A DNA stretch of 64,000 bases from Brevinematales bacterium (GTDB taxonomy: Bacteria; Spirochaetota; Brevinematia; Brevinematales; Thermospiraceae): contig JAOADA010000001.1 of NCBI GenBank assembly GCA_026417555.1, forward strand, positions 273,245 through 337,244, in the 5' to 3' direction. The notes under the pieces are model-generated. The model had not been told where the DNA came from and did not search any database. It saw nothing but the letters and a program-made list of their open reading frames with translations. Each line of letters opens with the position of its first letter. Positions within the stretch are counted from its first letter, which is position 1. A program made the position numbers and the translations under genes. This document shows positions 9,436-53,550 of the stretch, one piece after another.

Positions 9436-9464
9436 TTGACTTTTTCCTGGCTTTTCTGTATATT
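9436..9464 (+). promoter_or_regulatory. Sigma-70-type promoter (TTGACT-17-TATATT) upstream of clpP
   Basis: -35 at 9436-9441 and -10 at 9459-9464, 33 nt upstream of the ATG at 9497. Confidence 0.5.
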
Positions 9465-9496
9465 GTATTAGTTTTATTTCACAGAAGGAGAGAGAA

Positions 9497-15466: not shown

Positions 15467-15470
15467 AAAT

Positions 15471-34487: not shown

Positions 34488-35663
34488 ATGGCAATTACAG
34501 AGGCTATTTATCAGGACGAGAGAGAGATATTTAAGCATTTTTCTATTTTTTGTTCTAACAAAGTCAAGATGATCTTGCGCGAAAGAAATACTGAATTTGA
34601 GGCGACGTGCAAAGAGTGCAAGAATGGAGAGGTTATCTTTAGTTCGGTTACCAATCCTCATGGGCAATCGTTGGAAAATTACCGTATGCGTCCTCTTGAA
34701 GGGGAGATCTCTTTTGGTTCGGATACCTTTTTGTTTACTGCCTATCCTACTTCGGCAACCTCGATCTCTCTTCCGGATGTTCTTCGGAGTCACCCTAAAC
34801 GACGTTATCCCCGTATTATTGTGCAGGGAAATCCCTACATTTCAAAGATGTACACTATTGTGAGTGTTCGGGTTGTTGATCCTTCGATAGAGGACAATGA
34901 ACTTTCTCAAAAGATCCATTTGATTATGAGTACTATTGAGAGTAATCTGGTTCGTTCGGAAAATTATTCCTTGGCAAAAGTGACTCTCTATGATGGAACG
35001 GAGAAAAGCGTGATTGTACAGATGTTAAGAGAGTTTAAGAAACCATTTGTCGTCTTTAATACAGGAAATCTTGCACTCAAAGATGAGAATTATCTGACGT
35101 ATGATAATTATGTGAAATTTATGTCAGAAAAGGGAGCCACACGAGACGCTATCATGGCGAATTTGGACAAAATCAAGGATTTTTATATGAAGAATGGTAT
35201 CAAGAGTGAGATTATTGTTCCCCTTATTTTTGAAGAGGAAACCATCGGTCAGATTCGAGTAGCAACTCAGAAAGATTATATTAACAAGAGCCATATCATT
35301 CGATTGAATTCCTTGGCGGTCAATGCGATCGACAATCTTTTTATGAAGTGTTCTTTTGAGGTAGTGGCCAAGGAACCTCAACCAGTGATAGACCTTGGTG
35401 TTATGGGAATTAAGATCCTGATAACTGATCCGGATCTCTACAAGTATATTCGTCTTGGGAGAAGGGTATATGTCCAACTTTATTTTCCCGATGACACGCT
35501 GATCAAAACGATGGCCACAATTGTTAATGTTTATGATGATACCCCAGAGGGGCACAAACCAATTGGGGTGAAGTTGTCAAGTAATCTTGATTGGAAAGAT
35601 AAACGGAAACTTGAAGAGTTTATCCAGTCTGTGATCAGGTTGCAAAAAACGCAGCCTTCGTAA
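34488..35663 (+). CDS. Hypothetical protein with degenerate PilZ-like motifs
   Basis: 391-aa ORF with AGAGAGG RBS. KRRYPR is followed 22 aa later by DPSIED (RxxxR...DxSxxG-like). The C-terminal segment VIDLGVMGIKILI...VYVQLYFPDD...ATIVNVY resembles a PilZ beta-barrel. The assignment is tentative. Confidence 0.55.
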   Translation: MAITEAIYQDEREIFKHFSIFCSNKVKMILRERNTEFEATCKECKNGEVIFSSVTNPHGQSLENYRMRPLEGEISFGSDTFLFTAYPTSATSISLPDVLRSHPKRRYPRIIVQGNPYISKMYTIVSVRVVDPSIEDNELSQKIHLIMSTIESNLVRSENYSLAKVTLYDGTEKSVIVQMLREFKKPFVVFNTGNLALKDENYLTYDNYVKFMSEKGATRDAIMANLDKIKDFYMKNGIKSEIIVPLIFEEETIGQIRVATQKDYINKSHIIRLNSLAVNAIDNLFMKCSFEVVAKEPQPVIDLGVMGIKILITDPDLYKYIRLGRRVYVQLYFPDDTLIKTMATIVNVYDDTPEGHKPIGVKLSSNLDWKDKRKLEEFIQSVIRLQKTQPS

Positions 35664-37529: not shown

Positions 37530-37690
37530 AAAAAGAGGGCTTGTGGTTTTTCGGAGTTAAAAAGGGGAAGAGGCAAAGAGTGCGAGATCCTCTTGTGGGA
37601 GAAAAACAAAAATTTTCTTTTTTTCTTTACTTTTTCCAGATTTGTCGTATAATATACGTGGGAGAAAAGGAAGAATACAAGGAGGGGTTT

Positions 37691-38290
37691 ATGAGGATTG
37701 AGGATATTCTCCATAGTACCGTGGCTCTTGACAGGATTCAAAAGCAGAAACAAACAGAAGCCAAGGGGATGTCTCTTCGTCTTCTTAGAGAGTCCCAAGA
37801 TGAGGTGGGACTCCTTCGCCAAACGGATGAGAAACTTCTTGCTCTTCGGGATAGAGAACAGACTTTTATGCGTCATGAAGTTATTGTCTATGGATTAGAG
37901 CTTCTCAGGAAACGGGTGGGTGAGTTTGCTCGTACTCCAGTGGAACAGCGAGATTATGAACTTTTCTCTCAAGAACTTCAGCAGATAGTGAATGGAACAC
38001 GTTTTCAGGGAGAGACCCCGCTTGCTTCTATGAGTGTAAAGATAGCCGATGAAAAGTCTTTGTACACCCTTTCTCAGCAGATTGATCAGGAGATAGCTAT
38101 TCATCAGAATAGGATGAGACAAGAAAGAAAGCAGATAGCGGCTTTTTTAGTAACAGAAGAAAACCAGGAGGCACTTGCCGGCAAGTCCTCTGAGACACTT
38201 CTTGCTGAGTTACGGGATGCCATGCAAAAAGAGACCGAGTATCCCTTGAAAAAATCGTATTCATTTGCTCAGATTGTCAAAATACTTTGA
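37691..38290 (+). CDS. Hypothetical helical protein with a flagellin-N(ND1)-like segment
   Basis: GGAGGGG RBS then ATG at 37691. The segment LELLRKRVGEFARTPVEQRDYELFSQELQQIVNGTRFQGETPLAS resembles the flagellin/hook-associated N-terminal helix plus the xxFNGxxLL motif. Weak similarity, by eye only. Confidence 0.5.
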   Translation: MRIEDILHSTVALDRIQKQKQTEAKGMSLRLLRESQDEVGLLRQTDEKLLALRDREQTFMRHEVIVYGLELLRKRVGEFARTPVEQRDYELFSQELQQIVNGTRFQGETPLASMSVKIADEKSLYTLSQQIDQEIAIHQNRMRQERKQIAAFLVTEENQEALAGKSSETLLAELRDAMQKETEYPLKKSYSFAQIVKIL

Positions 38291-38306
38291 GAGCCATGAG
38301 AGGAAT

Positions 38307-39290
38307 ATGGAATGGTATCGTGCCTTTGATCCTAAGGATTCTCATGTTCTTGTAGTTGCAGAGATAGGTATCAATCATCTTGGAAAAGAAGACTATGCAG
38401 TGACATTGATTGATGAGGCAGTGAGGTGTGGAGCAGGGGCAGTAAAGTTTCAAATCTATAGGACAGAGGAGTTTTATCACCCTGATTCTCCTGTGAGGGA
38501 AATTTTTGCTCGGTATGAGTTGTCGTATGATGCCTTTCAGCGGCTCAAAAGATACTGTGAAACGAAGGGGATTCTTTTTTTTGCTACGCCGCTTGATTTT
38601 TCTTCTTTGTATTGGATGATGGACCAAAGTATTCCTCTTATCAAGGTTGCTAGTGCGGATATCACCTTCGAGCCATTTTTGCGGGAGATAGGGCAGTATG
38701 TACGAAGGGAAAGGGCATATGCAATTCTTTCGACGGGTTTTGTGGGTGAGAGAGAGATTCAAAAGGCTGTGAGGTTTTTCCCTCGGGAGAGAGTAGGGCT
38801 TTTGTACTGTGTATCGCGGTATCCTTCCCAGGCAGAAGATATGGATCTTTCTTTTATCCGTACCCTTTCGGCACGTTTTCGTACCACAGTGGGGTTTTCT
38901 GATCATTCTCTGGAGACAGTGTTTAGTGTGGCGGCGGTAGCCCTTGGAGCAAGGATTGTGGAGAGACATTTTACTGATAATCCCTCTCTTCAGGAGGCAG
39001 ATCATCCTCTTTCACTTGATCCTGAGAGATTTGGGACCTTGGTGGAACAGATACGAAAACTTGAGGTGGCTTTGGGGTGTGGGAGAAAGAAAATTACCGA
39101 GTTTGAACACAAGATTCGACCTCTTTCGATGCGGGATCTCTATGTCAAAAGAGATATTGGACGAGGAGAGATGATTTCCTCGCAAGATGTGTTATGTGCA
39201 AGGCCGGGGGAAGGTATTTCTGTGGAGCGATATGATAAATACGTAGGAAAAAGGGCAAAAAAAGATTACAAGGCATATGAGAAACTATGA
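38307..39290 (+). CDS. NeuB-family nonulosonic-acid (sialic/pseudaminic/legionaminic) synthase-like protein with C-terminal SAF domain
   Basis: VVAEIGINHLGK, KFQIY, KVASADI and FSDHS motifs, with a C-terminal SAF-like segment. ATG at 38307 is preferred over the TTG at 38265. Confidence 0.85.
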   Translation: MEWYRAFDPKDSHVLVVAEIGINHLGKEDYAVTLIDEAVRCGAGAVKFQIYRTEEFYHPDSPVREIFARYELSYDAFQRLKRYCETKGILFFATPLDFSSLYWMMDQSIPLIKVASADITFEPFLREIGQYVRRERAYAILSTGFVGEREIQKAVRFFPRERVGLLYCVSRYPSQAEDMDLSFIRTLSARFRTTVGFSDHSLETVFSVAAVALGARIVERHFTDNPSLQEADHPLSLDPERFGTLVEQIRKLEVALGCGRKKITEFEHKIRPLSMRDLYVKRDIGRGEMISSQDVLCARPGEGISVERYDKYVGKRAKKDYKAYEKL

Positions 39291-40192
39291 ATCACAAAAG
39301 ACGGTTTCCTCTTACCGTCAAGGATGAGCTTCTCGATTTTACCCTGACACGGAATGTGTGGTTTACCTTGAATAATGAAACTAAACCGTGGTATCGTTTT
39401 GCTCGAAGCTTTGATAAGTATTCTCTTCGTCTGGGGATAGATTTGTGGGAGAATCCCTTTTATGATTATGAAGGGGTACCAGAGCATTTGCCAGATCTTC
39501 TCACCTATCATGAGGGGATAGTCAAGATAGCGAGACAGCGTGATCTTGTGTACTATATTGGTGCGTGTGATGTGCCGTTTCGTTTAGTGGAGCAGGAGCA
39601 TGCTCTTCGGGTGAATGAGGGGGAGATTCTTTTAGCACTCGATAGACCCCTTGAAGAACCCCTTCTCGTTTCTCGCCCAAGAAGGGAGTGTGATCTTGTT
39701 GCTGATGAGGCGCTTGGTTTTCTCAAGAGGTTTTTTCGTCGTTGTTTCCAAGGGGTTCATCTTCTCTATGTGTTACAGTTTTTGCCCGCAGAAAAATATA
39801 CCTTTTTTATTCAATCCTCTCTTGGGGCTGTGGGACTTACTACAGATATGTTTAAGAATAAGCTTCTTCATTACCAATGTAAAGAACACTGGCATATTGA
39901 GACAGTGATTCATGAGGCGCTTGTGAATGCTATCACCTATGGGAGTCAGATGGATTACAGCAAGAAAATCTCTATAGCCTATGAAATTGGTCCCCAAGCA
40001 CTTCGCGTCTTTATTCAGGATCCTGGAGAAGGGTTTGATGTCCGAAGGCACATGCCTCTTTCTCTTCTGGATAGGGAGACGATTACGGGGCGTGGGATAC
40101 GTTTGATGAAGCATTTGACGTCGTCTTTGACGTACAATGCGAGTGGAAATGCTCTTTCGCTTTTATTTAATTTCAAGGAACCTTATGAGTGA
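39287..40192 (+). CDS. RsbW/SpoIIAB-like serine kinase (HATPase_c) with unknown ~180-aa N-terminal domain
   Basis: ATGA overlap with the NeuB-like stop. C-terminal N-box HEALVNAITYG, G1 IQDPGEGFD, G2 TGRGIRLMKHL. Confidence 0.7.
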   Translation: MNHKRRFPLTVKDELLDFTLTRNVWFTLNNETKPWYRFARSFDKYSLRLGIDLWENPFYDYEGVPEHLPDLLTYHEGIVKIARQRDLVYYIGACDVPFRLVEQEHALRVNEGEILLALDRPLEEPLLVSRPRRECDLVADEALGFLKRFFRRCFQGVHLLYVLQFLPAEKYTFFIQSSLGAVGLTTDMFKNKLLHYQCKEHWHIETVIHEALVNAITYGSQMDYSKKISIAYEIGPQALRVFIQDPGEGFDVRRHMPLSLLDRETITGRGIRLMKHLTSSLTYNASGNALSLLFNFKEPYE

Positions 40193-40715
40193 AACAAAGG
40201 AGAGGGATATGTTACAACCTGTTCCTTTTTCTGAACTTTGTTGGAATGTGTTTGAATGGATAGGAGAGCGCTGGATGCTTGTCGTGGGTGGGACACGTGA
40301 ATCGTACAATATGATGACAGCAAGTTGGGGGGGTGTTGGGGTGGTGTGGAATGAGCCTATGGTTTTTGTCTTTGTGAGACCAAGTCGCTATACCCATGAA
40401 TTTTTGATGAAGTATCCTTCTTTTAGTCTTGTCTTTTTACCAGAAGCCTTTCGAGAGATACTTGAGGTATGTGGTTCTCGATCAGGCAGAGAAATAGAAA
40501 AGATGAAACTTGGTGGTATTACTCCTCTTTCTTTGGAGGGTGGTGCCGTAGGATTTGAAGAGGCCGAGCTTATCCTTACGTGTACCACAGTGTGTCGTCA
40601 GCCTATCGAGCCTTTGTCTCTTTTGCGAGAGGATATTCGTCGAGCTTTTTATGCGGGAGGGGATTATCATGATCTCTTTATTGCTCGGATTGAAGAGATA
40701 TGGAGGCCTGCATGA
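40185..40715 (+). CDS. Flavin-reductase-like (split-barrel) domain protein
   Basis: ATGAGTGA overlap with the upstream gene. YNMMTASWGGVGVVWNEPMVFVFVRPSRYT is typical of flavin reductase-like domain proteins. Confidence 0.7.
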   Translation: MSETKERDMLQPVPFSELCWNVFEWIGERWMLVVGGTRESYNMMTASWGGVGVVWNEPMVFVFVRPSRYTHEFLMKYPSFSLVFLPEAFREILEVCGSRSGREIEKMKLGGITPLSLEGGAVGFEEAELILTCTTVCRQPIEPLSLLREDIRRAFYAGGDYHDLFIARIEEIWRPA

Positions 40716-41380
40716 AGCAGCACACCTATACCTTGATTGCTCTTGGGATTTTCTTCGGTCCTTTTTTGCTGTCTTTTCATCCGCTCGTATTTTTTATTCA
40801 GTACCTTCCTGCTGTTGTGATCAGTGTTCTGGTGGTGGGAGGATTGTATATTGTTTGGGATAGTTTGGCGGTACGGTGGGGACATTGGCGTTTTAATCCT
40901 ACCTATGTGGGAGAGGTGAGATGGCTTGGTCTTCCGCCGGGAGAGTGGCTTTTTTTTCTGGTGGTTCCCTATGCCTGTTTGTTTGTGTATGAGGTGAGTA
41001 GGGTTCTCTTTGTGGTAACCTCTGTCCATCCTTCTTTTTGGTGGATTCAAGGTATTTTGGCCCTTGGCTTTGGTGTACTGGCATGGGTATGGCGGCGGCA
41101 AGGATATACCTCTCTTGCGCTGGGAAGTGTGGGGCTTTTTTGGTTTCTTTCAGTGTTTCTTGCGCCTGGTATTGTTTCTTCCTCAACATTCTGGTTTTTT
41201 ATAGGGTTTTCTATGTTTGCCTTTGTGATTGTTGATGGGTTGTATGTGAATCTTCCTACTATTTTCTATAACGAAAAGGCCATCTGGGGAATCAAGATCT
41301 TTAATATTCCCTTGGAAGATTTTTTGTATAATTTTTCTCTCTTGGGATTGGTGTTGCTTGTTTATCTTCAGTTTCGATAA
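40712..41380 (+). CDS. Lycopene-cyclase-domain (CrtYc/Yd-type, two repeats) membrane protein
   Basis: ATGA overlap with the upstream gene and GGAGG RBS. Two repeats each carry the conserved acidic motif (LPPGEWLFF and IPLEDFLYN) within polytopic TM segments. Confidence 0.65.
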   Translation: MKQHTYTLIALGIFFGPFLLSFHPLVFFIQYLPAVVISVLVVGGLYIVWDSLAVRWGHWRFNPTYVGEVRWLGLPPGEWLFFLVVPYACLFVYEVSRVLFVVTSVHPSFWWIQGILALGFGVLAWVWRRQGYTSLALGSVGLFWFLSVFLAPGIVSSSTFWFFIGFSMFAFVIVDGLYVNLPTIFYNEKAIWGIKIFNIPLEDFLYNFSLLGLVLLVYLQFR

Positions 41381-41391
41381 GAGGAGAGAGC

Positions 41392-42294
41392 GTGGTGGTG
41401 CTTGCAGGACTACTGGTTTTTGGGTTCGTGTTTGTGATGATCAATGAAACCCTCTGGTGGGTGCGCTGGTTGGCGCGAGGAAAGGGGAAAGTGTTTCTTT
41501 CGCCGCTGGAGTTTTTTCATCCCCATAGATCTCACAAGGCAGTGCTTCTTCTTCATGAGTTTTCTGGGCTGGTGTGTTCGCTTGAAGAGTTGGGGCGGAA
41601 ATTATATGATGAGGGTTGGGACGTCTTCATTCCTGCTATGCCAGAAACGGTGGCAGAGAAGAGTGAATTGGAAAAAATTCAGGCAGGACCTCTCTATTTT
41701 CTCTGGTATGAAGAGGCAGAAAAGTATATACAGAAACTCTTGAAGGAATATGAGGAAGTGGTGGTTGGGGGAGCAAGCATTGGAGGAAGTCTTGCCCTTC
41801 ACCTTGCTTCGCAGTATAAGGTAAAGGCAGTATTTGCTGTGGCAGCACCCTATGGACTCTTTGGATGGCATTATTCTCGACCTTTGTCGAGAAATCTTAT
41901 GCTTCTTTTTTCTGGATGGGTAGGGCTTGTTTGTCCCTGGTGGGAGGAGAGAAGAAGATCCTTTCCTTCGCTTGAGAAAAGGTATGGTGTGGAAGGGGTT
42001 ATTTGGGCTCGAGCAGTGCATTCTCACAAAATAGGGCTTCGGCAGATGAGAAGAAGACTACGTTTTGTTCATGCTCCTTGTCTTTTGATCCAGGCGAACA
42101 ATGACCGTACCGTGAATCCTGGAAGTATTGTGCGTTTGATGAAAAATTTGAAAAATGCTTCTCGTGAGGCTGTGATCCTTGATATGTCATGGGATAGAGA
42201 AAGCCGAAGACATGTGTTACTCAATCATGAGAAAGTAAAAAATGAGGTAATGGAAAGAATAAAGGAGTTTCTACGGAGGGCAGGGAATGTTTGA
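41392..42294 (+). CDS. Alpha/beta hydrolase (esterase/lipase-type)
   Basis: GTG start after GAGGAGAG. Nucleophile elbow GGASIGGS, with downstream Asp/His candidates (NDRTV, RHVLLNHE). Confidence 0.7.
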   Translation: MVVLAGLLVFGFVFVMINETLWWVRWLARGKGKVFLSPLEFFHPHRSHKAVLLLHEFSGLVCSLEELGRKLYDEGWDVFIPAMPETVAEKSELEKIQAGPLYFLWYEEAEKYIQKLLKEYEEVVVGGASIGGSLALHLASQYKVKAVFAVAAPYGLFGWHYSRPLSRNLMLLFSGWVGLVCPWWEERRRSFPSLEKRYGVEGVIWARAVHSHKIGLRQMRRRLRFVHAPCLLIQANNDRTVNPGSIVRLMKNLKNASREAVILDMSWDRESRRHVLLNHEKVKNEVMERIKEFLRRAGNV

Positions 42295-44413
42295 GACAGC
42301 AAGTTTTTTTCTGGTGGCTTTTGTGCTTGTAGTATTGGCCCTGGATATGCTTGTGATGAATCTCAATCGTGTGACGTTGAGTGCTGCTTTATGGAGTGGG
42401 TTACTTGCTTTGTATGCCCTTCTTTGGGGACTCAAACTCTATGTGGCACAAACCAATAATATGGTACTCTTGGGGTGGATCCAGCGACTTCAGGATGTTC
42501 TTTGGGTTCATCAGGGATGGATCGTGTGGCTTTTTATTCTTTGGCTTACAAGAGAGGAAAAGCCTTTTCCTCGGCGGGTGATTGTGCTGTTTCTCCTCAG
42601 CATGGGGTTTTCGGTGTTGGGTTTTGTTGGATGGTTATATGATTCTCTCTATCTCTATTCTATCCCGGGAACCTCTCGGGATGTTGTGGGAATCATGGTG
42701 GTCCCTTCTACGGGAAGGATATTAGCTATTGTGTATACCGTAATTCTTTTGATTTTGGCAGCAGGAGAGGCCATCGCAAGGTATATGGTCGTATCCTATG
42801 CGTTTCAACAGCGGCGTATTCGCTATCTTTTGGCAGGGAGTGTGGTAGCCGGTATTTTGTTTCTGTTTGGAGAAGAGCGATTTGCTTTTTTGCCGGTAAA
42901 GGCTCTTGCCCTTTTGGTGATGGGGAGTGTTGTTTTCTACGTAGCAAACACCTTTCGGACATTGAAGATTCGAGAAAAGGTGATACGTTTTGTTTCTTTG
43001 GCCCTCTTTGGATTCTTTTTGATGGGTCTTCCTGCGATGCTGTTTTATATCTTTCGTCGTTGGTTTATGGGGCTCTCCGCTGAGGTTTTTTTGTTTGTGT
43101 TTTCTGGAAGTATGGCATTGTATTTTGTGTTTGCCGTGCTTCTTCTGACATTTCTGAGAAAGCTTTTTCATCATCAAACACTTGATGAGGAGAGGTTTCC
43201 TTTTTTGGTGAGACGACTAGGACAGAACAAGAGTCGAGATGAGTTTTATGAAGCGACAGCTCTTTTTCTCAAGGAAATGGTGGAAAGGGATGTTGACATT
43301 GTTGAAAGGCAAAGAGAAGATTTTTTTGTAGTCTTTTCCACCAGAGAGAAAAAGGGCAAGATTAGTATTCCTCCTTCTTTGAGGCGGCATTTTGAGAGTG
43401 GGGAGGGGTACTTTGACAGGGAGTTTGTTCTTCATCAGAGGCCTTTTCGAAAAGATGTTGAGGTCTTTTTTGGGTATTTTGATGCTACGGAGAGTGAAGC
43501 TGTTCTTGCGGTTCTTCGAGAAGAGAATCTTGAACTTTTGATTCAGTTTGCTTCTTTGCCGGATGAGGAGGGATTTTCGCTTCGGGAGATCAGAGAACTC
43601 AAAGCCATGCTTCGTTTGATTGAGGTTCTGTATCAAAATGTGATCTTTTTTGAAAAAGCAGAGGAAACAGAACAGACAGAGAGAGAATTGGCGCTGGCCT
43701 CAGAGATTCAGGAAAACCTTTTTCAGAGAGAGCTTCCCAAGGTGCGGGGATTGGATATAGCATTTTATCAAGAACCGGCAAAGTGGTTGAGTGGGGATTA
43801 TCTTTGGCTTGATGCGGTTTCCTCTCATGAACTTGCTTTTGTGGTAGCGGATGTTTCTGGAAAGGGTATTTCAGCGGCCTTGATCACCATGATGATCCAC
43901 AGTACCGTCCACGGATATCAATTTGGTTCTTCAACAGTGAATGCTCTTCTTCATCGGTTGAATGGAATGCTTTCTCGGAAAAAACCAGAAAGTGAGTGGA
44001 AAACATTGAGCTTTGCAACACTTTTTGCTGGATTTATTGATACTGATATCCAGACACTTTTTTTTAGTAATGCGGGACATTATCCTCTTCTTGTGTGGGA
44101 TAGAGAAAAACGCGAGTTTTTCGAACTCTCTACGCCAGGAAAGCCAGTGGGATTATTTGCTGAGGCAACCTATGAAACAGATACCTATCGGTATGAGAGT
44201 GACCAGATCTTGGTGGTGTATTCTGACGGTATGACAGAATGTATCAATGCTGCCGAAGAAGAATTTGGTATTCAACGGTTAAAGGCACTCATCCAGAAAT
44301 ATGATTATCTGCCTGCCAAAGAAATACAAGACAAAATTCTTCAAGAGATTCGAGAGTTTACTGTTGGGACGGAGATTTATGATGATATGACACTTGTGGT
44401 GATAAAAACATGA
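42287..44413 (+). CDS. Polytopic membrane PP2C/SpoIIE-family serine phosphatase
   Basis: 8-nt overlap with the hydrolase gene. About 9-10 TM helices in the first ~300 aa. The C-terminal SpoIIE domain has GDYLWLDA...FVVADVSGKGISAAL, YSDGMTEC and YDDMTLVVI. Confidence 0.85.
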   Translation: MFETASFFLVAFVLVVLALDMLVMNLNRVTLSAALWSGLLALYALLWGLKLYVAQTNNMVLLGWIQRLQDVLWVHQGWIVWLFILWLTREEKPFPRRVIVLFLLSMGFSVLGFVGWLYDSLYLYSIPGTSRDVVGIMVVPSTGRILAIVYTVILLILAAGEAIARYMVVSYAFQQRRIRYLLAGSVVAGILFLFGEERFAFLPVKALALLVMGSVVFYVANTFRTLKIREKVIRFVSLALFGFFLMGLPAMLFYIFRRWFMGLSAEVFLFVFSGSMALYFVFAVLLLTFLRKLFHHQTLDEERFPFLVRRLGQNKSRDEFYEATALFLKEMVERDVDIVERQREDFFVVFSTREKKGKISIPPSLRRHFESGEGYFDREFVLHQRPFRKDVEVFFGYFDATESEAVLAVLREENLELLIQFASLPDEEGFSLREIRELKAMLRLIEVLYQNVIFFEKAEETEQTERELALASEIQENLFQRELPKVRGLDIAFYQEPAKWLSGDYLWLDAVSSHELAFVVADVSGKGISAALITMMIHSTVHGYQFGSSTVNALLHRLNGMLSRKKPESEWKTLSFATLFAGFIDTDIQTLFFSNAGHYPLLVWDREKREFFELSTPGKPVGLFAEATYETDTYRYESDQILVVYSDGMTECINAAEEEFGIQRLKALIQKYDYLPAKEIQDKILQEIREFTVGTEIYDDMTLVVIKT

Positions 44414-44448: not shown

Positions 44449-45228
44449 TTATCTTTTTCTTGAAAAAGGAGAGGTGAGGGTCTTCCAGACACGATCAAGG
44501 TGTTCTGAGAGTCTATCGTAGGAGATGTTTTTCCACTCACAGATTTGGGAGGCTACAAGGGTGAGATGAGAGAGTCGAGAGAGTTGAGAAAGTCCTGTTT
44601 CTGGGGTATAGAGAGGGATATCCGGGGCATCGGTTTCAATGAGGATAGCTTCTAGGGGTATATCGGCAATCAGTTTGTGGTAACGGTTGGAGTTCCAGGG
44701 ACGGAGGATGTGGCTAGCAAAAGACACAAATCCTCCCGAGGTATAGATTTGCTTGGCAATATCCTTGTTCTGAGAGTAAGCATGAATGATAAACCCCGGG
44801 ATTTTATTTTGCGCTGGCTTGAGAAGAGGCCAGAGTCTGTGCCACGCCTTTCGGCAGTGGATATTCAGGGGAAGACCGAGTTCTTGAGCGATAGCGATCT
44901 GTTGGGAAAAAACGTTTTCTTGAAGTTCAGGAAAAGGTTTTTCAAAATCAAGACCACACTCTCCAACAAAACTTGGTGTGTTTTTCAGAATCTCAAAAAG
45001 TCGGGTATCCCAGTCTGGGGGAAGGTTATCGAGATACCAAGGATGGACACCAAAAGCAGGAAAAAAGCAAGGGGTGTGTTTGGTGAGAGAAAGAACCTCG
45101 TCCCAATTTTCTGGTCCAGTAGAGCACACAACCCATTTTTGGATATGGGCTTGCCTTGCTTCCTCGAGTTGTTGATAAAGATCGGTGATCCGTGTGTCAT
45201 AAAGATGGCAATGAGCGTCCCAAAGCAT
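44449..45228 (-). CDS. tatD: TatD-family metal-dependent hydrolase/DNase
   Basis: 259-aa ORF. MLWDAHCHL, VGECGLD, IHCR and IETDAPD motifs. Confidence 0.9.
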   Translation of the reverse strand: MLWDAHCHLYDTRITDLYQQLEEARQAHIQKWVVCSTGPENWDEVLSLTKHTPCFFPAFGVHPWYLDNLPPDWDTRLFEILKNTPSFVGECGLDFEKPFPELQENVFSQQIAIAQELGLPLNIHCRKAWHRLWPLLKPAQNKIPGFIIHAYSQNKDIAKQIYTSGGFVSFASHILRPWNSNRYHKLIADIPLEAILIETDAPDIPLYTPETGLSQLSRLSHLTLVASQICEWKNISYDRLSEHLDRVWKTLTSPFSRKR

Positions 45229-45402: not shown

Positions 45403-45819
45403 ATGATACCTACAAAGCGTTATGAAGCGGGGCAGTATATTATTCATGAGGACGATACTGACAAAACAATGTATATCATCATGGAAGGAAAAGTTCGTGT
45501 TGAAGCAAGGGATCCTACCACCGGCGAGATGGTGTCTCTGGCTGAGTTGGGGCCAAAAGATTTTTTTGGTGAGACAGCACTCCTTCTTGATCAACCAAGG
45601 AATGCCAGTGTCAAAGCCCTTACGTCGGTGGAGGTGTATCCTATTTCGAGTAAGGAAATGTTGGCTGATTATGTAGAGATTCATCCCCAATTTGCCCTTC
45701 GTATGATCATGATTATGGCGCGACGTGTTGACCAGATGAAGGAGGCTTACCTCAAGACCCATGGGTATCTTCAATATGCAAAGCAGATTCTTGCTTCTTT
45801 GTCTCAGAAAGGGGAGTGA
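45403..45819 (+). CDS. Stand-alone cyclic-nucleotide-binding (CAP_ED) domain protein, no DNA-binding domain
   Basis: 138-aa ORF with GGAGGGAG RBS. FFGETALLLDQPRNASVKA is the phosphate-binding cassette. Confidence 0.85.
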   Translation: MIPTKRYEAGQYIIHEDDTDKTMYIIMEGKVRVEARDPTTGEMVSLAELGPKDFFGETALLLDQPRNASVKALTSVEVYPISSKEMLADYVEIHPQFALRMIMIMARRVDQMKEAYLKTHGYLQYAKQILASLSQKGE

Positions 45820-45824
45820 AAAGA

Positions 45825-45853
45825 TTGCAAGAAGTCCTAAAAGAGTGTATAAT
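45825..45853 (+). promoter_or_regulatory. Sigma-70 promoter (TTGCAA-17-TATAAT)
   Basis: -35 at 45825-45830 and -10 at 45848-45853, 31 nt upstream of the STAS ATG at 45884. Confidence 0.6.
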
Positions 45854-45883
45854 ATTCTCATCGATAGAGAGAGGAGGAGTTCT

Positions 45884-46210
45884 ATGAAGTATGAGCTTTC
45901 CGAATATCATGGCAAAACGCTCTTGAAGATCAAAGAAAATCTTGTGACAGATCCCGATGCACGGGAATTCAAAGAGGTTTTGACCAACCTGATCGATAGT
46001 GGCAAGAAGGAGATCATTATAGACTTTACAGACATGGTATTCATTGGGAGTAGTGGGATAGGGAAGCTTCTTCTTGCGTACAAGAGGCTGGATGATATGG
46101 GGGGAAAACTCTACGTAACTGGTCTCAACAAGGATATTAAGGATCTTTTTATCACCTTTCGTTTGAATGAGTTTTTTCAGATTGTTGATGATGTGAGTCA
46201 GATTAAGTAG
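45884..46210 (+). CDS. STAS-domain anti-sigma-factor antagonist (SpoIIAA/RsbV-like)
   Basis: GAGGAGGAG RBS. 108-aa protein with DFTDMVFIGSSGIGKLL (conserved Ser). Confidence 0.85.
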   Translation: MKYELSEYHGKTLLKIKENLVTDPDAREFKEVLTNLIDSGKKEIIIDFTDMVFIGSSGIGKLLLAYKRLDDMGGKLYVTGLNKDIKDLFITFRLNEFFQIVDDVSQIK

Positions 46211-46215
46211 ATTCC

Positions 46216-48648
46216 ATGCCACTTGTGTTGTGGATACTTCTTGGAGCTGGAGTAGGTAGTCTCGCGACGTTGGGAATTATACGGTTTTTTTTCTCTGGGG
46301 AGAAGGGGGATGATAGTTTTTGGTTAGCAAGAATACTGAATCTCTATAGGCGTGATGTCTCGGTGCCTCAGGGAAGTGAGAATCGAGAAGAGATTCTTCA
46401 GTTTTTTCAAAGGGTTGTAGGTTTTCATGCGTATGAATTGTTGCGGCTTTCTTCCGAGGAAGTATGTGATGTGAAGCGTTCTGTTGAGCTTTCTTTTTCT
46501 GGGATTGCTCCTTTTCTCTCAGAGATTTCTTCTTCAACTTACTACCAACCTGTTCCTTTGTATGATGTGGGACCACTTTCTTCTCTTTTTGCCCCTATCT
46601 ATTCGTCTCGTGTGCATGTTGTGTGGGTATATGTGCTTCCTCTTTATCCCTTTGAGGTAAAGTATTTTCTCTTTCTTGTGATGCCAAAGCAAGCCTTGGG
46701 GAAAAAGCAGTCTTCAGTGGCTATGTTCTTGATGCGACAGTTTTTTCTCAATCTTTATCTTGAAGAGGAAACAAAACGTTATCGTGAAAGTCAGGAGTTT
46801 TTGTTTAGTGTGTTTAATAAGAATCCTGTGGGGTTGGGACTTACCAATAAAGATGGCGTACTTCGGAAGTACAATCGAGAATTTTTTGATATAGCAGGGG
46901 AAATCAAAAGGATTCAGTTTTTGATAGGGGAAGAACACTTTGAGTTTTTGAAAAAGAATCAGTATCTCGATATTCTGAAAATGTATAAGGATCTTTATCT
47001 TCATATTAAAGGTGGGGCCCTGTATGATGACATGGGAACCGTACGAGGATATATCTTTTCGGTCATCAATGAGACCAAAAGTTATCTCTTAACACAGAAG
47101 ATTTCCCAGAGTGAGGAGCAATTTCGCCAACTTTTTCAACAGCTTCCTGTAGGACTTGTTATTTTTGAACCTACGGGACGTATCTATCTGGTGAATGAGG
47201 CTTTCCTGTTCTTGGTAGGAGTGTACAATGAAAATGAGGTGTATCAAAAAAATATTCGAGACATTTTGAATATCACGGAAATGGATTTTCGCAATATCTT
47301 GCAGCAGGTTCAACGGAATCCTTTTTTGTATTTTCGGTTGGGACTTCGCGAGCAGTATGGCAATAGGGTGTTTTCTGTTCATATTCGTCCCCTTGTTTTG
47401 GGGGAACGTGAGGTGTTGCAGGCAACTTTGGAGGACGTGAGTCTGGAGAATGAGCTTTATCGCCAGTTGGATGAAAAATCTCGTCGAGTAGAAGAAGAAC
47501 TGATGACAGCCAAAAGGGTATGGGAGCATATTCTCACAATACCCACAATCTACAACTCCCGGATCCGTTTTGAGGTTTTCTCAAAGCCCTCTTCTCATTT
47601 GGGGGGGGATTTTTATGACCTTTTTGCGCTTGATGATACGCATATAGGAGTGGTGGTGGCGGATGTGTCTGGACATGGGGTTTCTGCTGCCTTGATCACT
47701 TCTATGCTCAAGATTTACTTTGAGTTTAATCCCAAAGATCCTCATAAGATATCGGATGTTCTTCGTTATTTGCATTATATCCTTTCGAAGGTTTTGCCAC
47801 CGGATCAGTTTGTCACTCTTTTTTATGGGGTGATTGATACTCAGACCTATACTATTACCTATATTAATTGTGGGAATCCTAAACCTCTCTATGTTTCTTA
47901 TCCAAGGAAACATGTGGGGGTGCTTGAGGGGATAGCCCCACCATTGGGGAGTTCCCATTCGGTGGTATTCTCAGACTATATCCGTACTGAGCGGTTGGGA
48001 GAGAATACGAGGCTTCTCTTTTATACGGATGGGTTGTTTGTTTTCAAGAATGAAGAGGGTTTTTTCAACCAGGAAGGGCTTCAGGTCTTGTTCTCTCGTT
48101 ATGCGGAAAACCAGATTCGGCGTGTTTTGCCAGAGATATATGACACTCTTTTAAAGTCGTATGTTCCCCTTACGGAGGATGATGCTACCATGGTCATGAT
48201 TGTTTTGGAGCCACCGCTTCGTACCAAACAGTATCTCTCTTTGCCGTCGAATGTTCTTGAAATAGATCATGCTATTGTGAAGATTCAGGCCAATATTCAA
48301 GCGGTCGTAGATCTTAATGATGATGAACGTTGGAGGTTGTATACTGCTTTGTATGAAGCGCTCATCAATGCAGTAGAGCATGGAAATCGATTTGATGTCC
48401 AGAAACGGGTACATGTGTTTTATCGTATTCTTTCACAGGCCATTGTGATCAAGGTGAGGGATGAGGGGAAAGGGTTTGTTCTAGAAGAGGTTCCCAATCC
48501 TTTGGATAGAGAAAATCTCTTAAAACCCTCTGGTCGTGGTATTTTTATGATACGTAAGTTGATGGACAGGGTCAAGTACAATCGTGTGGGAAATGAGGTG
48601 ATCATGTTGATGCGTTTTGAAAAGCCGGTGTGTAGGGGGGAACGGTGA
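46216..48648 (+). CDS. TM-PAS-PP2C(SpoIIE)-RsbW-like kinase fusion protein
   Basis: 810-aa ORF with an N-terminal TM helix. PAS (SEEQFRQLFQQLPVGLVIFEPTGRIYLVNEAF). SpoIIE (GGDFYDLFALDD...VVVADVSGHGVSAAL, YTDGL, DDATMVMI). C-terminal HATPase (YEALINAVEHGN, VRDEGKGF, SGRGIFMIRKLM). Confidence 0.85.
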   Translation: MPLVLWILLGAGVGSLATLGIIRFFFSGEKGDDSFWLARILNLYRRDVSVPQGSENREEILQFFQRVVGFHAYELLRLSSEEVCDVKRSVELSFSGIAPFLSEISSSTYYQPVPLYDVGPLSSLFAPIYSSRVHVVWVYVLPLYPFEVKYFLFLVMPKQALGKKQSSVAMFLMRQFFLNLYLEEETKRYRESQEFLFSVFNKNPVGLGLTNKDGVLRKYNREFFDIAGEIKRIQFLIGEEHFEFLKKNQYLDILKMYKDLYLHIKGGALYDDMGTVRGYIFSVINETKSYLLTQKISQSEEQFRQLFQQLPVGLVIFEPTGRIYLVNEAFLFLVGVYNENEVYQKNIRDILNITEMDFRNILQQVQRNPFLYFRLGLREQYGNRVFSVHIRPLVLGEREVLQATLEDVSLENELYRQLDEKSRRVEEELMTAKRVWEHILTIPTIYNSRIRFEVFSKPSSHLGGDFYDLFALDDTHIGVVVADVSGHGVSAALITSMLKIYFEFNPKDPHKISDVLRYLHYILSKVLPPDQFVTLFYGVIDTQTYTITYINCGNPKPLYVSYPRKHVGVLEGIAPPLGSSHSVVFSDYIRTERLGENTRLLFYTDGLFVFKNEEGFFNQEGLQVLFSRYAENQIRRVLPEIYDTLLKSYVPLTEDDATMVMIVLEPPLRTKQYLSLPSNVLEIDHAIVKIQANIQAVVDLNDDERWRLYTALYEALINAVEHGNRFDVQKRVHVFYRILSQAIVIKVRDEGKGFVLEEVPNPLDRENLLKPSGRGIFMIRKLMDRVKYNRVGNEVIMLMRFEKPVCRGER

Positions 48649-49529
48649 TCTATCATACCCCTATTATGGTAGAGGAGGTAATTCATTTTTTTTCTTCGTG
48701 TGCAGGAGGCGTGTTTGTGGATGCTACGTGTGGGGAAGGGGGACATAGCGAGGCTATAGTCTCTCGTCTTGCCTATGAGAGGCTTCTCTGTATTGATAGA
48801 GACAAGGATATTTTGGAAGTAGCAAAGGAAAGGCTTTGTCATTTCCCTCGAGTGAGTTTTTATCATGCAACCTTTGATCAATTGCCAGAGGTTTTGAAAG
48901 ATGCCGGGGTAGAAGGCTGTGATGCTATTCTTGCCGATTTAGGTGTTTCTATGTATCATTTTACCCTTCATGAAAAAACAAAAGGTCGTGGCCTTAGCTT
49001 GGCGGATGAAGATGGACTTGATATGCGGCTGGATACAAGGAGTGGGATGACAGCGGCTGAGCTTCTCAATACCTTTTCTCAAAAGGAAATTGCGGATATT
49101 CTCTACACCTACGGAGAGGAGTATGATGCTTACAAAATAGCGAGGGCTATTTGTCACAATAGACCTCTTCGAACAGCTGCGCAGCTAGCAAAGATTGTGC
49201 TTAGAGCCAAAAAAAGTCATGGTTACCACAAAATCCACCCAGCGACAAAAACGTTTCAAGCACTTCGAATTTTTTTGAATAAAGAATTAGAAATTCTCGA
49301 AAGTTTTTTGCCCTCTGCTGCCGATATTTTACATATCCATGGTCGTCTGGCAGTGATCAGTTTTCACTCGCTAGAGGATAGGGTAGTGAAACGGAGTTTC
49401 CAATCACTCGCCAAGGAGGGCAAAGTGGCGATTCTTACCCAAAAACCTGTGGTTCCGTCGACGGAGGAGATGAAGCGGAATCGGGCCTCTCGAAGTGCTA
49501 AGCTTCGAGTAGTGGAGAGATGTGTATGA
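48645..49529 (+). CDS. rsmH: 16S rRNA (cytosine1402-N4)-methyltransferase RsmH (MraW)
   Basis: GTGA overlap with the upstream stop. HTPIMVEEV, DATCGEGGHS, DLGVS, FHSLEDR and NRASRSAKLR motifs. Confidence 0.93.
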   Translation: MIYHTPIMVEEVIHFFSSCAGGVFVDATCGEGGHSEAIVSRLAYERLLCIDRDKDILEVAKERLCHFPRVSFYHATFDQLPEVLKDAGVEGCDAILADLGVSMYHFTLHEKTKGRGLSLADEDGLDMRLDTRSGMTAAELLNTFSQKEIADILYTYGEEYDAYKIARAICHNRPLRTAAQLAKIVLRAKKSHGYHKIHPATKTFQALRIFLNKELEILESFLPSAADILHIHGRLAVISFHSLEDRVVKRSFQSLAKEGKVAILTQKPVVPSTEEMKRNRASRSAKLRVVERCV

Positions 49530-49894
49530 TACCCCGGGGTATAAAATCCTTGTTGGTTTTGTCAGCCTTGTTTTTTCTCTTTGTGATAGGATTTTTTTTA
49601 ATTGAACAACGGCAGGCTGTTTTGATGACCAAACGGGAGATTCGTCGTTTTTCTCAGGTAGTGACCGTGACAGAGACTCGCCTTCAAGAAGTGATGATCA
49701 CACGTTCCAAGATCTCGTTGCCTTCGTTTTCGTCAGGTATGAGGATTGTTCCCGTGGGGTATAGGGATGTGTATCGTGTGGAGATTCCTTCTTCCGAAAC
49801 CCAAGAAGAGAGAGATCGTCGTTTTGTGGGATGGGTGCAGGTGTGTTTAGAGTGGATTGTAGAACGGTTTCCTTCGGCGAAAATGGAAATTTGA
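49526..49894 (+). CDS. FtsL-like small bitopic membrane protein (putative)
   Basis: ATGA overlap with the rsmH stop. A single TM helix (LLVLSALFFLFVIGFFLI) at the dcw position normally held by ftsL. No sequence-level proof. Confidence 0.45.
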   Translation: MIPRGIKSLLVLSALFFLFVIGFFLIEQRQAVLMTKREIRRFSQVVTVTETRLQEVMITRSKISLPSFSSGMRIVPVGYRDVYRVEIPSSETQEERDRRFVGWVQVCLEWIVERFPSAKMEI

Positions 49895-49920
49895 CACAAC
49901 AGGCTCGATGAGAGTATACT
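49891..49920 (+). promoter_or_regulatory. Sigma-70-type promoter (TTGACA-18-TATACT)
   Basis: -35 at 49891-49896 and -10 at 49915-49920, 25 nt upstream of the ATG at 49945. Confidence 0.5.
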
Positions 49921-49944
49921 ACAGACAAGGAGAGACAAAAGAGG

Positions 49945-50823
49945 ATGGGAGTTGGTATTGCTTTGGTAGGGGTATGTTTTGTTGGATGTCTGTGGGTCGT
50001 GTATGCGTATAGAGAGGCGAAGCGGGTTCATATCGAACATCTTACCCTGTATACTGATGGAATACAGAGTCCACTGACTATTATGCATCTCTCTGATTTG
50101 CATCTTTTTGGAAACATGAGTCGTTCGCGTTTACATCGTATTCAAGAAATCATCAAAGAGCAGCTCTCACCAGATGTGGATTTTATTTTTTTGACGGGAG
50201 ATCTGATTGATAAGAATTCAGGTATTGATGTGCTACGAGAGAATATTCTTCCTCTTTTGAAAGCCAAAGGAGGGGTATATGCTGTGTTAGGGAATCATGA
50301 TTATTTTGAGTACAATGTTCTTCATGTTTTTTCTCCCCTTTTTTTCCTTCATGAAAAGAAAAATACCGACATAGAAAGGCTTTTGAATGTCCTTATCGAA
50401 GGAGGGGTGAGGGTTCTTCGAAATGAGATTCTCTCGTTGTCTTATAAAGGGAATGCTCTGACTCTGATTGGGGTGGATAATTTTCTTCAGGGGAGGTATA
50501 GTTGGCCGGATTTGGCTATTCCCGAAGATGAGAGTTACAAAATGGTATTGGCTCATTTTCCTGATGTGATTCACCATATCAAGGGACGGGTGGATGTGGT
50601 TTTTAGTGGGCATACGCATGGGGGACAGATTACGGTATGGGGATACCCTCTTACGGCCAAGGCCAGGATACGTCGGCGAGAGGCAAGGGGGGCCTCTATT
50701 CATGATAATACAGTGTTGTATGTTTCCAAAGGAGTAGGAGTGAGTCATTATTTGCCACTGCGTTTTTTTGCCCATCCTGATGTGACGATGGTAAGAATAG
50801 AGGTAACCGATGAAAAGAAATAG
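49945..50823 (+). CDS. Membrane-anchored metallophosphoesterase
   Basis: 292-aa ORF with an N-terminal TM helix. Calcineurin-like motifs HLSDLH, GDLID, GNHD and GHTHGG. Confidence 0.8.
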   Translation: MGVGIALVGVCFVGCLWVVYAYREAKRVHIEHLTLYTDGIQSPLTIMHLSDLHLFGNMSRSRLHRIQEIIKEQLSPDVDFIFLTGDLIDKNSGIDVLRENILPLLKAKGGVYAVLGNHDYFEYNVLHVFSPLFFLHEKKNTDIERLLNVLIEGGVRVLRNEILSLSYKGNALTLIGVDNFLQGRYSWPDLAIPEDESYKMVLAHFPDVIHHIKGRVDVVFSGHTHGGQITVWGYPLTAKARIRRREARGASIHDNTVLYVSKGVGVSHYLPLRFFAHPDVTMVRIEVTDEKK

Positions 50824-51448
50824 AATAACCGTGTTTTTGTTTTTTTTCTTTGTGTGGTTGATAGGAAGGGTGTATGCCCAATCCACGGAGCTTTCCCTTG
50901 CCTCACAGGCCATAGCGAGAGGGCGATGGGAAGGAAGTTTAACCTACCAGATGCGAGCACTTTCTCTCTCAGCTTCGAATTTTTTGTCTCGGGTGCAAAC
51001 AGTACTTCCCCTTCCGTTGGGGATGGTGAGGCTTGGAATGACCAATAGTTATTATTTTACTTTTTCTCAGGATTTCGTGGATTATGAGTACCGGGTAGTA
51101 GCAGTGGTGAGCAATGAAAATTTTGTTTCCACTATTACGTGGTTGTATAGTGCCTCTCAGAATGAGCGCCTCTATAATCTGATGAAGAGTCTTCCTTATC
51201 TCACCCAGACTACTCTCTGGTGGCAAAGCAGGACAAATCAAGGCATGGTGTATACTCTCTGGAGAGAGAAGTCTACCTACACCACTTTGCGGGTTCTTCA
51301 GGAAAAAGACAATACTTTAGAAAAAGGTTTTTGTATCACGATTGAGGTCAATCCCATCAAAAAACTACCGACACAGGTGATTGAAGAATTTGTCTGGGAG
51401 TATGTCACAAAAAGTGACTGGAGAGATGTAGAGAGAATGCTTCGGTAG
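50810..51448 (+). CDS. Hypothetical secreted protein
   Basis: 212-aa ORF overlapping the upstream gene by 14 nt. Signal-like ITVFLFFFFVWLIGRVYA. I recognise no family. Confidence 0.5.
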   Translation: MKRNRITVFLFFFFVWLIGRVYAQSTELSLASQAIARGRWEGSLTYQMRALSLSASNFLSRVQTVLPLPLGMVRLGMTNSYYFTFSQDFVDYEYRVVAVVSNENFVSTITWLYSASQNERLYNLMKSLPYLTQTTLWWQSRTNQGMVYTLWREKSTYTTLRVLQEKDNTLEKGFCITIEVNPIKKLPTQVIEEFVWEYVTKSDWRDVERMLR

Positions 51449-51467
51449 CGAAATGCGAGGTGGGAAT

Positions 51468-53549: not shown

Positions 53550-53550
53550 C

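Follow-up and report, generated by a model that had tools for sequence, protein, structure and literature searches.

A 64,000-nucleotide (nt) stretch of the genome of a Thermospira-like Brevinematales spirochete (assembly GCA_026417555.1, contig JAOADA010000001.1, forward-strand positions 273,245 to 337,244), hereafter the window, which is numbered from its first letter, carries at 37691-44413 a seven-gene operon that consists of two layers. The first is a triad specific to the class Brevinematia, which encodes a small flagellin-like protein (hyp200), a NeuB-family nonulosonic-acid synthase and a kinase-like protein of the RsbW type. The second is a four-gene tail of the Thermospira-like clade, encoding a flavin-reductase-like protein, a membrane protein with lycopene-cyclase-domain repeats (the cyclase-domain protein), an alpha/beta hydrolase and a polytopic transmembrane (TM) phosphatase of the PP2C family (TM-PP2C); these four genes joined it recently, in a single sub-lineage. 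All components fall into known superfamilies, and the signalling follows a variant of the partner-switching scheme. A preliminary description of this DNA had singled out the six genes from NeuB to TM-PP2C as a candidate undescribed system. Literature searches on Thermospira, Brevinematales and Brevinema in connection with sialic acid or this gene set indeed yielded no description of the module, but its old part is the triad, the other four genes being recent, and we are dealing with a lineage-specific arrangement, not with a widespread six-gene system. The solid result is architectural, that is, a lineage-specific triad and a clade-specific tail, and function is read from context. Tentatively, we consider it possible, if short of probable, that the triad ties the synthesis of a nonulosonic acid, which probably serves the periplasmic flagellum, to a kinase of the partner-switching type, and that the Thermospira clade recruited envelope enzymes along with the membrane PP2C, the latter as an opposing input.

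When one genome per GTDB species was scanned with an alignment of the kinase family, 12 loci encoding a full-length member emerged, all from Brevinematales/Spirochaetota; the other 68 loci that were kept encode generic RsbW-like proteins. As judged by tblastn, hyp200, NeuB and the kinase gene are adjacent in this order in all 12 loci, with an overlap of 8-14 nt between NeuB and the kinase gene throughout, and the four tail genes are absent from all of these loci. The same adjacency of the triad is found in L006 and L007. Similarly, the loci of NeuB homologues with 44-53% identity, from other Brevinematales and from 'Spirochaetes bacterium GWF1' metagenome-assembled genomes (MAGs), contain only a protein of ~200 amino acids (aa), NeuB and a 313-aa HATPase_c_2 protein, usually located between ftsW and (fer4)-serA-eda-pfk. 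The flanks of the triad vary, with FtsW upstream in most cases, an aminotransferase, ProRS or major facilitator superfamily (MFS) transporter upstream in the Thermospira clade, and the ftsW flank replaced in L014 and L016 (by DUF4921 in L014) next to an intact triad. The Brevinema locus contains ftsW, the small protein and NeuB, and lacks the kinase; because Brevinema keeps the pair without the kinase, hyp200 and NeuB represent the deepest link. The flagellin-like gene, which had been placed outside the unit, therefore belongs to its conserved core.

The sequence families are equally narrow. The hyp200 family comprises 21 clusters, all from Brevinematia and devoid of Pfam annotation. An exhaustive HMMER search of 1.84 billion representatives recovered 17 clusters of the kinase family at E<1e-30, essentially all of 300-320 aa, beyond which the scores drop to generic RsbW proteins of 130-170 aa. 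Only seven close homologues of the kinase-like protein are present in 5.8 billion clusters, including those of Brevinematales bacterium NS (83% identity) and Thermospira aquatica (68%). The NeuB sequence of the window recurs unchanged in a Brevinematales MAG.

The triads outside the Thermospira clade (L006, L007 and L011-L020; for instance, L006 12045-14556) almost always precede a gene for a KDPG/KHG-aldolase (Eda-like), usually with genes for a small ferredoxin and for SerA of type I in between. In L014 and L016 (e.g. L014 11002-11637), the aldolase gene directly follows that of the kinase, although ftsW and serA are absent. That an aldolase cleaving 2-keto-3-deoxy acids is encoded beside a synthase making such acids may not be just a remnant of synteny.

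Within the Thermospira-like clade, the gene order is retained to 51-62% protein identity despite differing flanks. All seven genes are found, in unchanged order, in the window (between an aspartate aminotransferase gene and tatD), in strain NS (L003/L004/L009; CP053071; between ProRS and tatD) and in a JGI metagenome contig (L002; between the genes for an SH3 protein and a zinc-finger protein). Thermospira aquatica (L001; CP073355) and L005 have the same order, with an MFS transporter upstream, minus the cyclase-domain gene, in place of which a gap of 77-90 nt is left; this gene is dispensable within the clade. Altogether, the order recurs in at least five other lineages at 51-83% protein identity, and since it survives both this divergence and the changes of flanks, synteny is the evidence that reaches beyond chance. 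The preliminary description had held that chance juxtaposition would follow if no relative kept the order, and relatives do keep it. The six genes that it viewed as one system are not a single ancient unit, and across Brevinematales (12 of 12 loci) only hyp200, NeuB and the kinase are conserved; likewise, the kinase and phosphatase bracketing three enzymes are present as noted, but as a late, clade-specific arrangement. The flavin reductase, hydrolase and TM-PP2C genes are confined to loci of this clade. A metagenome scan with the TM-PP2C family retrieved five loci, all of close relatives sharing the arrangement, so that the tail was not found as an independent module, a result that bears neither way on its independent origin. 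Recent horizontal transfer of the operon was considered and rejected, its GC content (0.44-0.45) being like that of the remainder of the window and the triad being vertically distributed in the class.

The T. aquatica locus has been disturbed by mobile elements, with three Transposase_mut gene fragments preceding the operon (L001 7113-9009) and an rve integrase gene downstream, and nevertheless keeps the gene order. Its hyp200 was called as only 141 aa; tblastn aligns residues 13-199.

Pfam and NCBIfam profile searches upheld all six family assignments made earlier, and none was reassigned. In the kinase-like protein, HATPase_c_2 (PF13581) is matched over residues 198-292 with an E value of 2e-14, and the N box (HEALVNAITYG), the G1 box (DxGxG) and the G2 box (GRGI) are invariant in all 17 aligned family members; judging from these motifs, this half is presumably ATP-binding and kinase-competent. 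The N-terminal ~190 aa, which had been thought to represent a novel domain of 180 aa, have no usable match in Pfam or NCBIfam at E values up to 10, and structure prediction combined with Foldseek favours a degenerate PP2C fold. The AlphaFold model of the protein has a mean predicted local distance difference test (pLDDT) score of 51, with residues 21-170 reaching 55-90 and being rich in beta structure. The best Foldseek matches of this domain in the PDB are PP2C-fold proteins, namely SidD, RsbX (3w40; probability 0.98, E 0.04), PstP, RssB and a Ser/Thr phosphatase of S. agalactiae. A weak but colinear hhalign match (E 0.01, probability 4%) to an alignment of the PP2C of the window and its relatives pairs YYIN with YsNAGH and D-x-L-I-A-F-D with l-v-Y-T-D-G. 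Within the domain, only D17 of the 'DF' motif is invariant or nearly so (at least 90%), and the other metal-binding aspartates of PP2C (DxxGxG, TDG-type) are not conserved across the family. Hence, we tentatively regard the domain, on the basis of the model, as a decayed PP2C fold, that is, a pseudo-phosphatase. With the N-terminal domain read in this way, the whole protein is most likely a compact variant of the known PP2C-RsbW fusions. In an hhalign comparison of the family with the PAS-SpoIIE-HATPase_c_2 protein of the window, the HATPase_c_2 half alone was aligned, with 98% probability.

In L016 and L017 (~9440-10000), tblastn matched just the HATPase_c_2 half (residues 160-294), and ~500 nt after NeuB show no detectable similarity to the N-terminal domain. 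With only the HATPase_c_2 half matched there, the pseudo-PP2C half seems to be changing at a much higher rate than the kinase half.

For hyp200, a Pfam and NCBIfam scan of the window protein at E values up to 10 gave nothing usable. The AlphaFold2 model (pLDDT 77) consists of a long N-terminal helix, a short helix, a beta-turn region and long C-terminal helices; the first ~45 residues are of low confidence and probably disordered, and there is no hydrophobic segment. The best Foldseek match in the PDB is HP1076 (3k1i/6lea; probability 0.99-1.0, E 0.045-0.2, TM-score up to 0.64 on the target), and flagellins also are matched, including B. subtilis Hag, Caulobacter FljK, Shewanella FlaA/B and Leptospira FlaB (probability 0.3-0.87, E 0.5-3). 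When 20 family members were scanned individually, Flagellin_N was the single recurrent Pfam family, reaching 22.5-25.0 bits in four of them (E 2.2e-5 to 1e-4), below the cutoff of 26.6, and Flagellin_C had no match in any of the 20 at E values up to 10. The Flagellin_N match covers profile positions 96-135, corresponding to the ND1b helix and the T-x-F-N-G-x-x-L motif, which in hyp200 takes the form T-(K/R)-(F/Y)-(N/Q)-G-E. An hhalign comparison with B. subtilis Hag aligned only a 27-residue segment with the T-F-N-G motif (E 0.016, probability 3%), which is suggestive but no proof, and sequence-profile searches of the PDB with two hyp200 alignments (A2 and A4) returned neither a flagellin nor any other meaningful match. 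The initial 'flagellin-N-like' label is accordingly reasonable as a statement of resemblance, but family membership is not established. Two Ser/Thr-rich motifs in the loop at 108-126, ISYLST and SLYT, are nearly invariant in the family and missing in the two Brevinema proteins, which are divergent throughout (16% identity).

The synthase is matched by PF03102 (1e-61) and SAF (7e-5). Its scores against the two specific NCBIfam models lie below the respective cutoffs, with 274.1 bits against 399.65 for TIGR03569 (NeuB/NnaB) and 202.3 bits against 340.25 for TIGR03586 (PseI), and the matches in the PDB include PseI (8h2c, 1e-42), SpsE and NeuB (1xuu, 2e-37). The protein keeps the equivalents of N. 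meningitidis NeuB residues E25, K53, K129, E134 (as D), S213/H215, E234/H236, D247 and R314. Because the catalytic residues are all present, it should be an active PEP (phosphoenolpyruvate)-condensing enzyme, as far as these residues predict activity; the possibility that it is a pseudo-enzyme was rejected on the same grounds.

Among the tail proteins, the flavin reductase (PF01613, 1.3e-14) is encoded, among the loci compared, solely in the Thermospira-like ones. The cyclase-domain protein, with about 6 hydrophobic segments, is matched by PF18916 (7e-21) and TIGR03462 (9e-25), each over two stretches; no carotenoid genes (crtE, crtB or crtI) were found among the Pfam-scanned open reading frames (ORFs) of the window. 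The hydrolase (Hydrolase_4, 1e-8; DLH, 1e-5) has an N-terminal hydrophobic anchor at residues 1-24, and HEFSG, G-x-S129-x-G, D238 and H279 are invariant in five homologues. TM-PP2C comprises a TM region with about 8-10 hydrophobic helices (residues 1-295), a cytoplasmic linker (~296-500) and the PP2C domain (513-707; PF07228, 1e-43), in which the metal-binding motifs GD, DVSGKG, SDG and DD are invariant; residues 1-498 have no Pfam match, and searches of Pfam and NCBIfam with the TM region at E values up to 10 returned nothing usable.

The ORFs and junctions given in the preliminary description hold, as do its observations that the chain abuts the convergent tatD and that the upstream gene ends 16 nt away, except for the start of the flavin reductase. 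Direct reading of the sequence shows ATGA overlaps at the NeuB/kinase (39287-39290) and flavin reductase/cyclase-domain (40712-40715) junctions. The cyclase-domain gene is followed by TAA, GAGGAGAGAGC and the GTG start of the hydrolase gene, which in turn overlaps the TM-PP2C gene by ATGTTTGA at 42287-42294. The ATG at 40185, which would make the flavin reductase gene overlap that of the kinase (ATGAGTGA), is not conserved among homologues, the four of which all have their start at the position corresponding to ATG 40209 (ML...). The latter start leaves a 16-nt spacer that contains AAAGGAAAGGG, with a ribosome-binding site of the AGGAAAGG type, and is probably the genuine one, hence a gap instead of an overlap. 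The transcription unit most likely includes all seven genes and terminates 35 nt from tatD: no site comparable to the promoter match in Table 1 was found before any later gene of the operon, and a terminator search inside the operon detected none that is convincing. The tightness of the junctions, on which the earlier argument had put weight, is weak evidence of unity. Based on longest-ORF starts, 24 of the 39 same-strand neighbour pairs of the 64-kb window are spaced by 20 nt or less, and a run at 46216-55218 that encodes such unrelated products as the PAS-PP2C-kinase protein, MraW, a metallophosphoesterase, unknown proteins and an adenylate cyclase is equally tight. Because tight spacing is the norm in this genome, tight junctions prove little for the functional unity of the operon.

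Table 1. Features of the operon and its borders (positions in the window)
Feature	Position	Strand	Remarks
Sigma-70-like promoter match, best of the region	37626-37653	+	TTTACT-16-TATAAT, 10/12; consensus match alone
hyp200, 199-aa all-helical flagellin-like protein, gene 1 of the triad	37691-38290	+	Ribosome-binding site AAGGAGG
NeuB/LegI/PseI-family PEP-condensing nonulosonic-acid synthase with SAF domain	38307-39290	+	PF03102, SAF
301-aa protein, ~190-aa degenerate PP2C-like N-terminal domain (tentative) and RsbW-type HATPase_c_2	39287-40192	+	PF13581
Flavin-reductase-like split-barrel protein, 168 aa (tail)	40209-40715	+	PF01613; alternative start 40185 gives 176 aa
Membrane protein, 222 aa, two lycopene-cyclase-domain repeats (optional tail member)	40712-41380	+	PF18916, TIGR03462
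Membrane-anchored alpha/beta serine hydrolase, 300 aa (tail)	41392-42294	+	Hydrolase_4, DLH
Polytopic membrane PP2C (SpoIIE-type), 708 aa (tail)	42287-44413	+	PF07228
tatD, convergent	44449-45228	Opposite to operon	Bounds the 3' side

Across 40000-44000, which covers tail genes, the AT skew falls sharply (-0.19 to -0.28) and the GC skew climbs (0.25-0.27) compared to the remaining window. The T-rich codons of the three membrane proteins would be the simplest explanation of this shift.

In the reading that we tentatively prefer, NeuB would condense PEP with an (amino)sugar supplied by genes in other parts of the genome into a sialic-acid-like nonulosonic acid, which would most likely decorate the periplasmic flagellum or hyp200 itself. 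The kinase-like protein would be an ATP-dependent partner-switching element whose bound and phosphorylated partner is either a STAS protein (in trans) or hyp200 or NeuB (in cis); in this way, sugar synthesis or flagellar assembly would be tied to the signalling state. The pseudo-PP2C half of the protein would be a docking domain, not an enzyme. In the Thermospira clade, TM-PP2C would provide an opposing, envelope-sensing phosphatase input, with the hydrolase, flavin reductase and cyclase-domain protein as putative co-expressed envelope or lipid enzymes. The connection to flagellar glycosylation is drawn because the pair of hyp200 and NeuB persists without the kinase, matching the pairing of synthase and flagellin in O-glycosylation; nonulosonic-acid synthases typically belong to the systems that O-glycosylate flagellins (bioRxiv 10.1101/2023.12.03.569772). 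That NeuB and the kinase are translationally coupled throughout the order points to regulation or to the formation of a complex. There also is a precedent for a kinase of this kind in flagellar control, namely HsbR, a PP2C and RsbW-kinase fusion that sits in flagellar gene regions of Pseudomonas and controls flagellar gene expression via HsbA/FlgM partner switching (PMC5085249).

Several observations weigh against this reading. With junctions generically tight in this genome, the tail genes may be co-transcribed without a mechanistic link, and the clade can dispense with one of them, that of the cyclase-domain protein. None of the relatives encodes a STAS substrate near the triad, and neither does the operon itself, in agreement with the preliminary description, and no phospho-acceptor was found; a tblastn search with both STAS proteins of the window detected no STAS gene beside the triad in ~20 related loci. 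Neither NeuA, NeuC or a Pse/Leg partner nor a glycosyltransferase (Maf or other) or CMP-sugar synthetase is encoded among the Pfam-scanned ORFs of the window or in the annotated related loci (±10 kb), bearing out the earlier remark that NeuB is devoid of its usual partner enzymes. The PP2C assignment of the N-terminal domain depends on a low-confidence model and an E value of ~0.04, and the flagellin likeness of hyp200 is sub-threshold (Pfam below the cutoff, Foldseek E of at least 0.045, hhalign at 3%, negative PDB profiles). Furthermore, most distant triads are located between ftsW and serA/eda, not beside flagellar genes.

Somewhat unlikely, in our view, is an operon of convenience in which only the core of hyp200 and NeuB, possibly with the kinase, is linked, the tail having been placed downstream by rearrangement and co-transcribed for unrelated processes, with its PP2C serving a STAS/RsbW pair encoded in trans. 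The absence of the tail from all non-Thermospira loci, the loss of the cyclase-domain gene in two lineages, the tight spacing even of unrelated genes in the window and the many other partner-switching genes in the window and its relatives all speak for such an origin. However, the tail stays on the triad in the same order to 51-62% identity through at least three changes of flanks, and full-length relatives of TM-PP2C are seen only in this arrangement.

It is clearly unlikely that the triad is instead an envelope or cell-division glycan module, in which NeuB would provide a nonulosonic or related ulosonic acid for a surface or peptidoglycan-associated glycan and hyp200 would be a coiled-coil scaffold, its flagellin likeness being that of a generic helical bundle. 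This explanation draws on the position of the triad directly after ftsW in most Brevinematales loci, on that of the Brevinema pair within the ftsW...ddl-ftsQAZ region, on the sub-threshold flagellin scores and on the genes added in the Thermospira clade, which encode membrane or envelope proteins; moreover, spirochetes such as Leptospira are reported to express non-flagellar surface nonulosonic acids (PMC3438082). Yet, Flagellin_N is the one Pfam family that recurs in hyp200, exactly at the ND1b helix and T-F-N-G motif, the fold matches are dominated by flagellins and a flagellar co-chaperone, and adjacency to ftsW is lost in L014, L016 and the whole Thermospira clade with the triad intact.

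The last alternative, a switch without STAS in which the pseudo-PP2C/RsbW protein binds or phosphorylates hyp200, or holds a sigma factor until hyp200 is exported by the flagellar type III apparatus in the manner of FlgM, with NeuB activity slaved to that state, is highly improbable: the absence of STAS genes near the triad, the probably disordered N-terminus of hyp200 without a hydrophobic segment, the intact ATP-binding boxes of the kinase and, as a small hint, the lack of ISYLST and SLYT in the hyp200 of kinase-less Brevinema are compatible with it, but to our knowledge STAS domains are the substrates of every HATPase_c_2 kinase of this type that has been characterised, trans-encoded STAS proteins are plentiful in these genomes, and the motif loss is weak evidence because Brevinema hyp200 is divergent throughout. 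The broader version, with hyp200 as a possible type III export substrate and kinase partner that couples flagellar assembly to NeuB sugar synthesis, and with the Thermospira PP2C and lipid-active enzymes wired in, is quite improbable.

No sigma factor gene adjoins the operon, and no flagellar genes were detected among the Pfam-scanned ORFs of the window. Past tatD, the plus strand carries a second signalling set, consisting of genes for a cyclic nucleotide monophosphate (cNMP)-binding protein (45403-45819), a STAS protein (45884-46210) and an 810-aa PAS-SpoIIE-HATPase_c_2 protein (46216-48648), the last of which overlaps mraW (48645-49529) by 4 nt. This set (45403-48648) is a complete partner switch with phosphatase, kinase and STAS protein and a possible cyclic-nucleotide input, and its STAS gene, the nearest one to the operon, most simply belongs to the PAS-PP2C-kinase gene that it directly precedes. 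Further partner-switching genes include a second STAS gene of the window (5466-5801), STAS, RsbW and SpoIIE genes in L002 and a GAF-SpoIIE gene in L014. At 51453-55218, an ORF of 698 aa without a Pfam match is followed, with a 23-nt overlap (longest-ORF starts), by a gene for a HAMP and adenylate/guanylate cyclase protein (53527-55218). This cyclase and the cNMP-binding protein suggest that cyclic-nucleotide signalling is prominent in the organism. Elsewhere in the window, an 811-aa protein (15252-17687) joins a 7TMR-DISM 7TM sensor domain to an MCP signalling domain, an unusual chemoreceptor architecture, and a 391-aa protein (34488-35663) with a DUF1577 match (E 3e-7) is encoded between the pst/phoU operon and divergent MGMT and aminotransferase genes. 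DUF1577 is otherwise typical of Leptospira.

If the triad is a functional unit, it links, in a combination not seen before, a synthase of nonulosonic acids, a protein resembling the flagellin family and a kinase of the partner-switching type, and does so in Brevinematia, a deep and poorly studied class of spirochetes. It would then offer a handle on the control of flagellar glycosylation in spirochetes with periplasmic flagella as well as a natural case in which a PP2C domain has decayed and become a docking module beside its kinase. Should the tail be merely co-transcribed, the finding shrinks to a lineage-specific operon of known families. Given that T. aquatica is cultured and has a complete genome, the predictions are directly testable.

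Compared to known systems, the module misses a defining feature of each candidate: there is no STAS protein, there are no Neu/Pse/Leg partners and the flagellin score is sub-threshold. The cyclase-domain protein resembles the heterodimeric or fused lycopene beta-cyclases (CrtYc/CrtYd, TIGR03462) in its two Lycopene_cyc repeats and its size as a polytopic membrane protein of ~220 aa, but its gene is dispensable, lies next to those of a flavin reductase and a hydrolase, and has no carotenoid genes in the window. Like HP1076 of H. pylori, a co-chaperone of FliS (PMC7248283), hyp200 is, in its model, a small helical protein with flagellin-like helices; unlike it, hyp200 contains the T-F-N-G motif and has no fliS gene nearby, and HP1076, with ~120 residues in the crystal, shows no detectable sequence similarity to it. 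The flagellin O-glycosylation islands of Campylobacter, Helicobacter, Shewanella and Aeromonas (Maf/GlfM; 10.1101/2023.12.03.569772) share with the triad a nonulosonic-acid synthase gene that adjoins a flagellin-family-like gene and, as in the case of GlfM and HP1076, a small helical accessory protein in cis. In contrast to these islands, the triad loci have no Maf-type or other glycosyltransferase, CMP-synthetase or precursor genes, a kinase takes the place of the transferase, and the flagellin-like protein is only ~200 aa long and below the family threshold.

Like the RsbU/RsbV/RsbW system of B. subtilis sigma-B (and SpoIIE/SpoIIAA/SpoIIAB), the operon encodes both an RsbW-type protein with N, G1 and G2 boxes and an intact SpoIIE-type PP2C, the latter with a large sensory N-terminal region as in RsbU-like input phosphatases. 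It differs in having no STAS antagonist or sigma factor in any relative, in the extra, putatively degenerate PP2C-like domain of the kinase, and in the conservation of the kinase with a sugar synthase and a flagellin-like protein instead of with a phosphatase. Compared to the PP2C-RsbW fusions, such as P. aeruginosa HsbR (REC-PP2C-kinase), M. tuberculosis Rv1364c and the protein encoded at 46216-48648 of the window, the kinase-like protein of the triad is just 301 aa long, lacks any input domain of the REC or PAS type and any STAS gene beside its own, and its PP2C-like half is unrecognisable by sequence and without the catalytic set of aspartates; a genomic and functional tie to flagellar genes is a feature of HsbR itself (PMC5085249). 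What it would share with these fusions, if the PP2C reading holds, is the order of a PP2C-like domain followed by HATPase_c_2, and its N-terminal half would be a pseudo-phosphatase, as in E. coli RssB.

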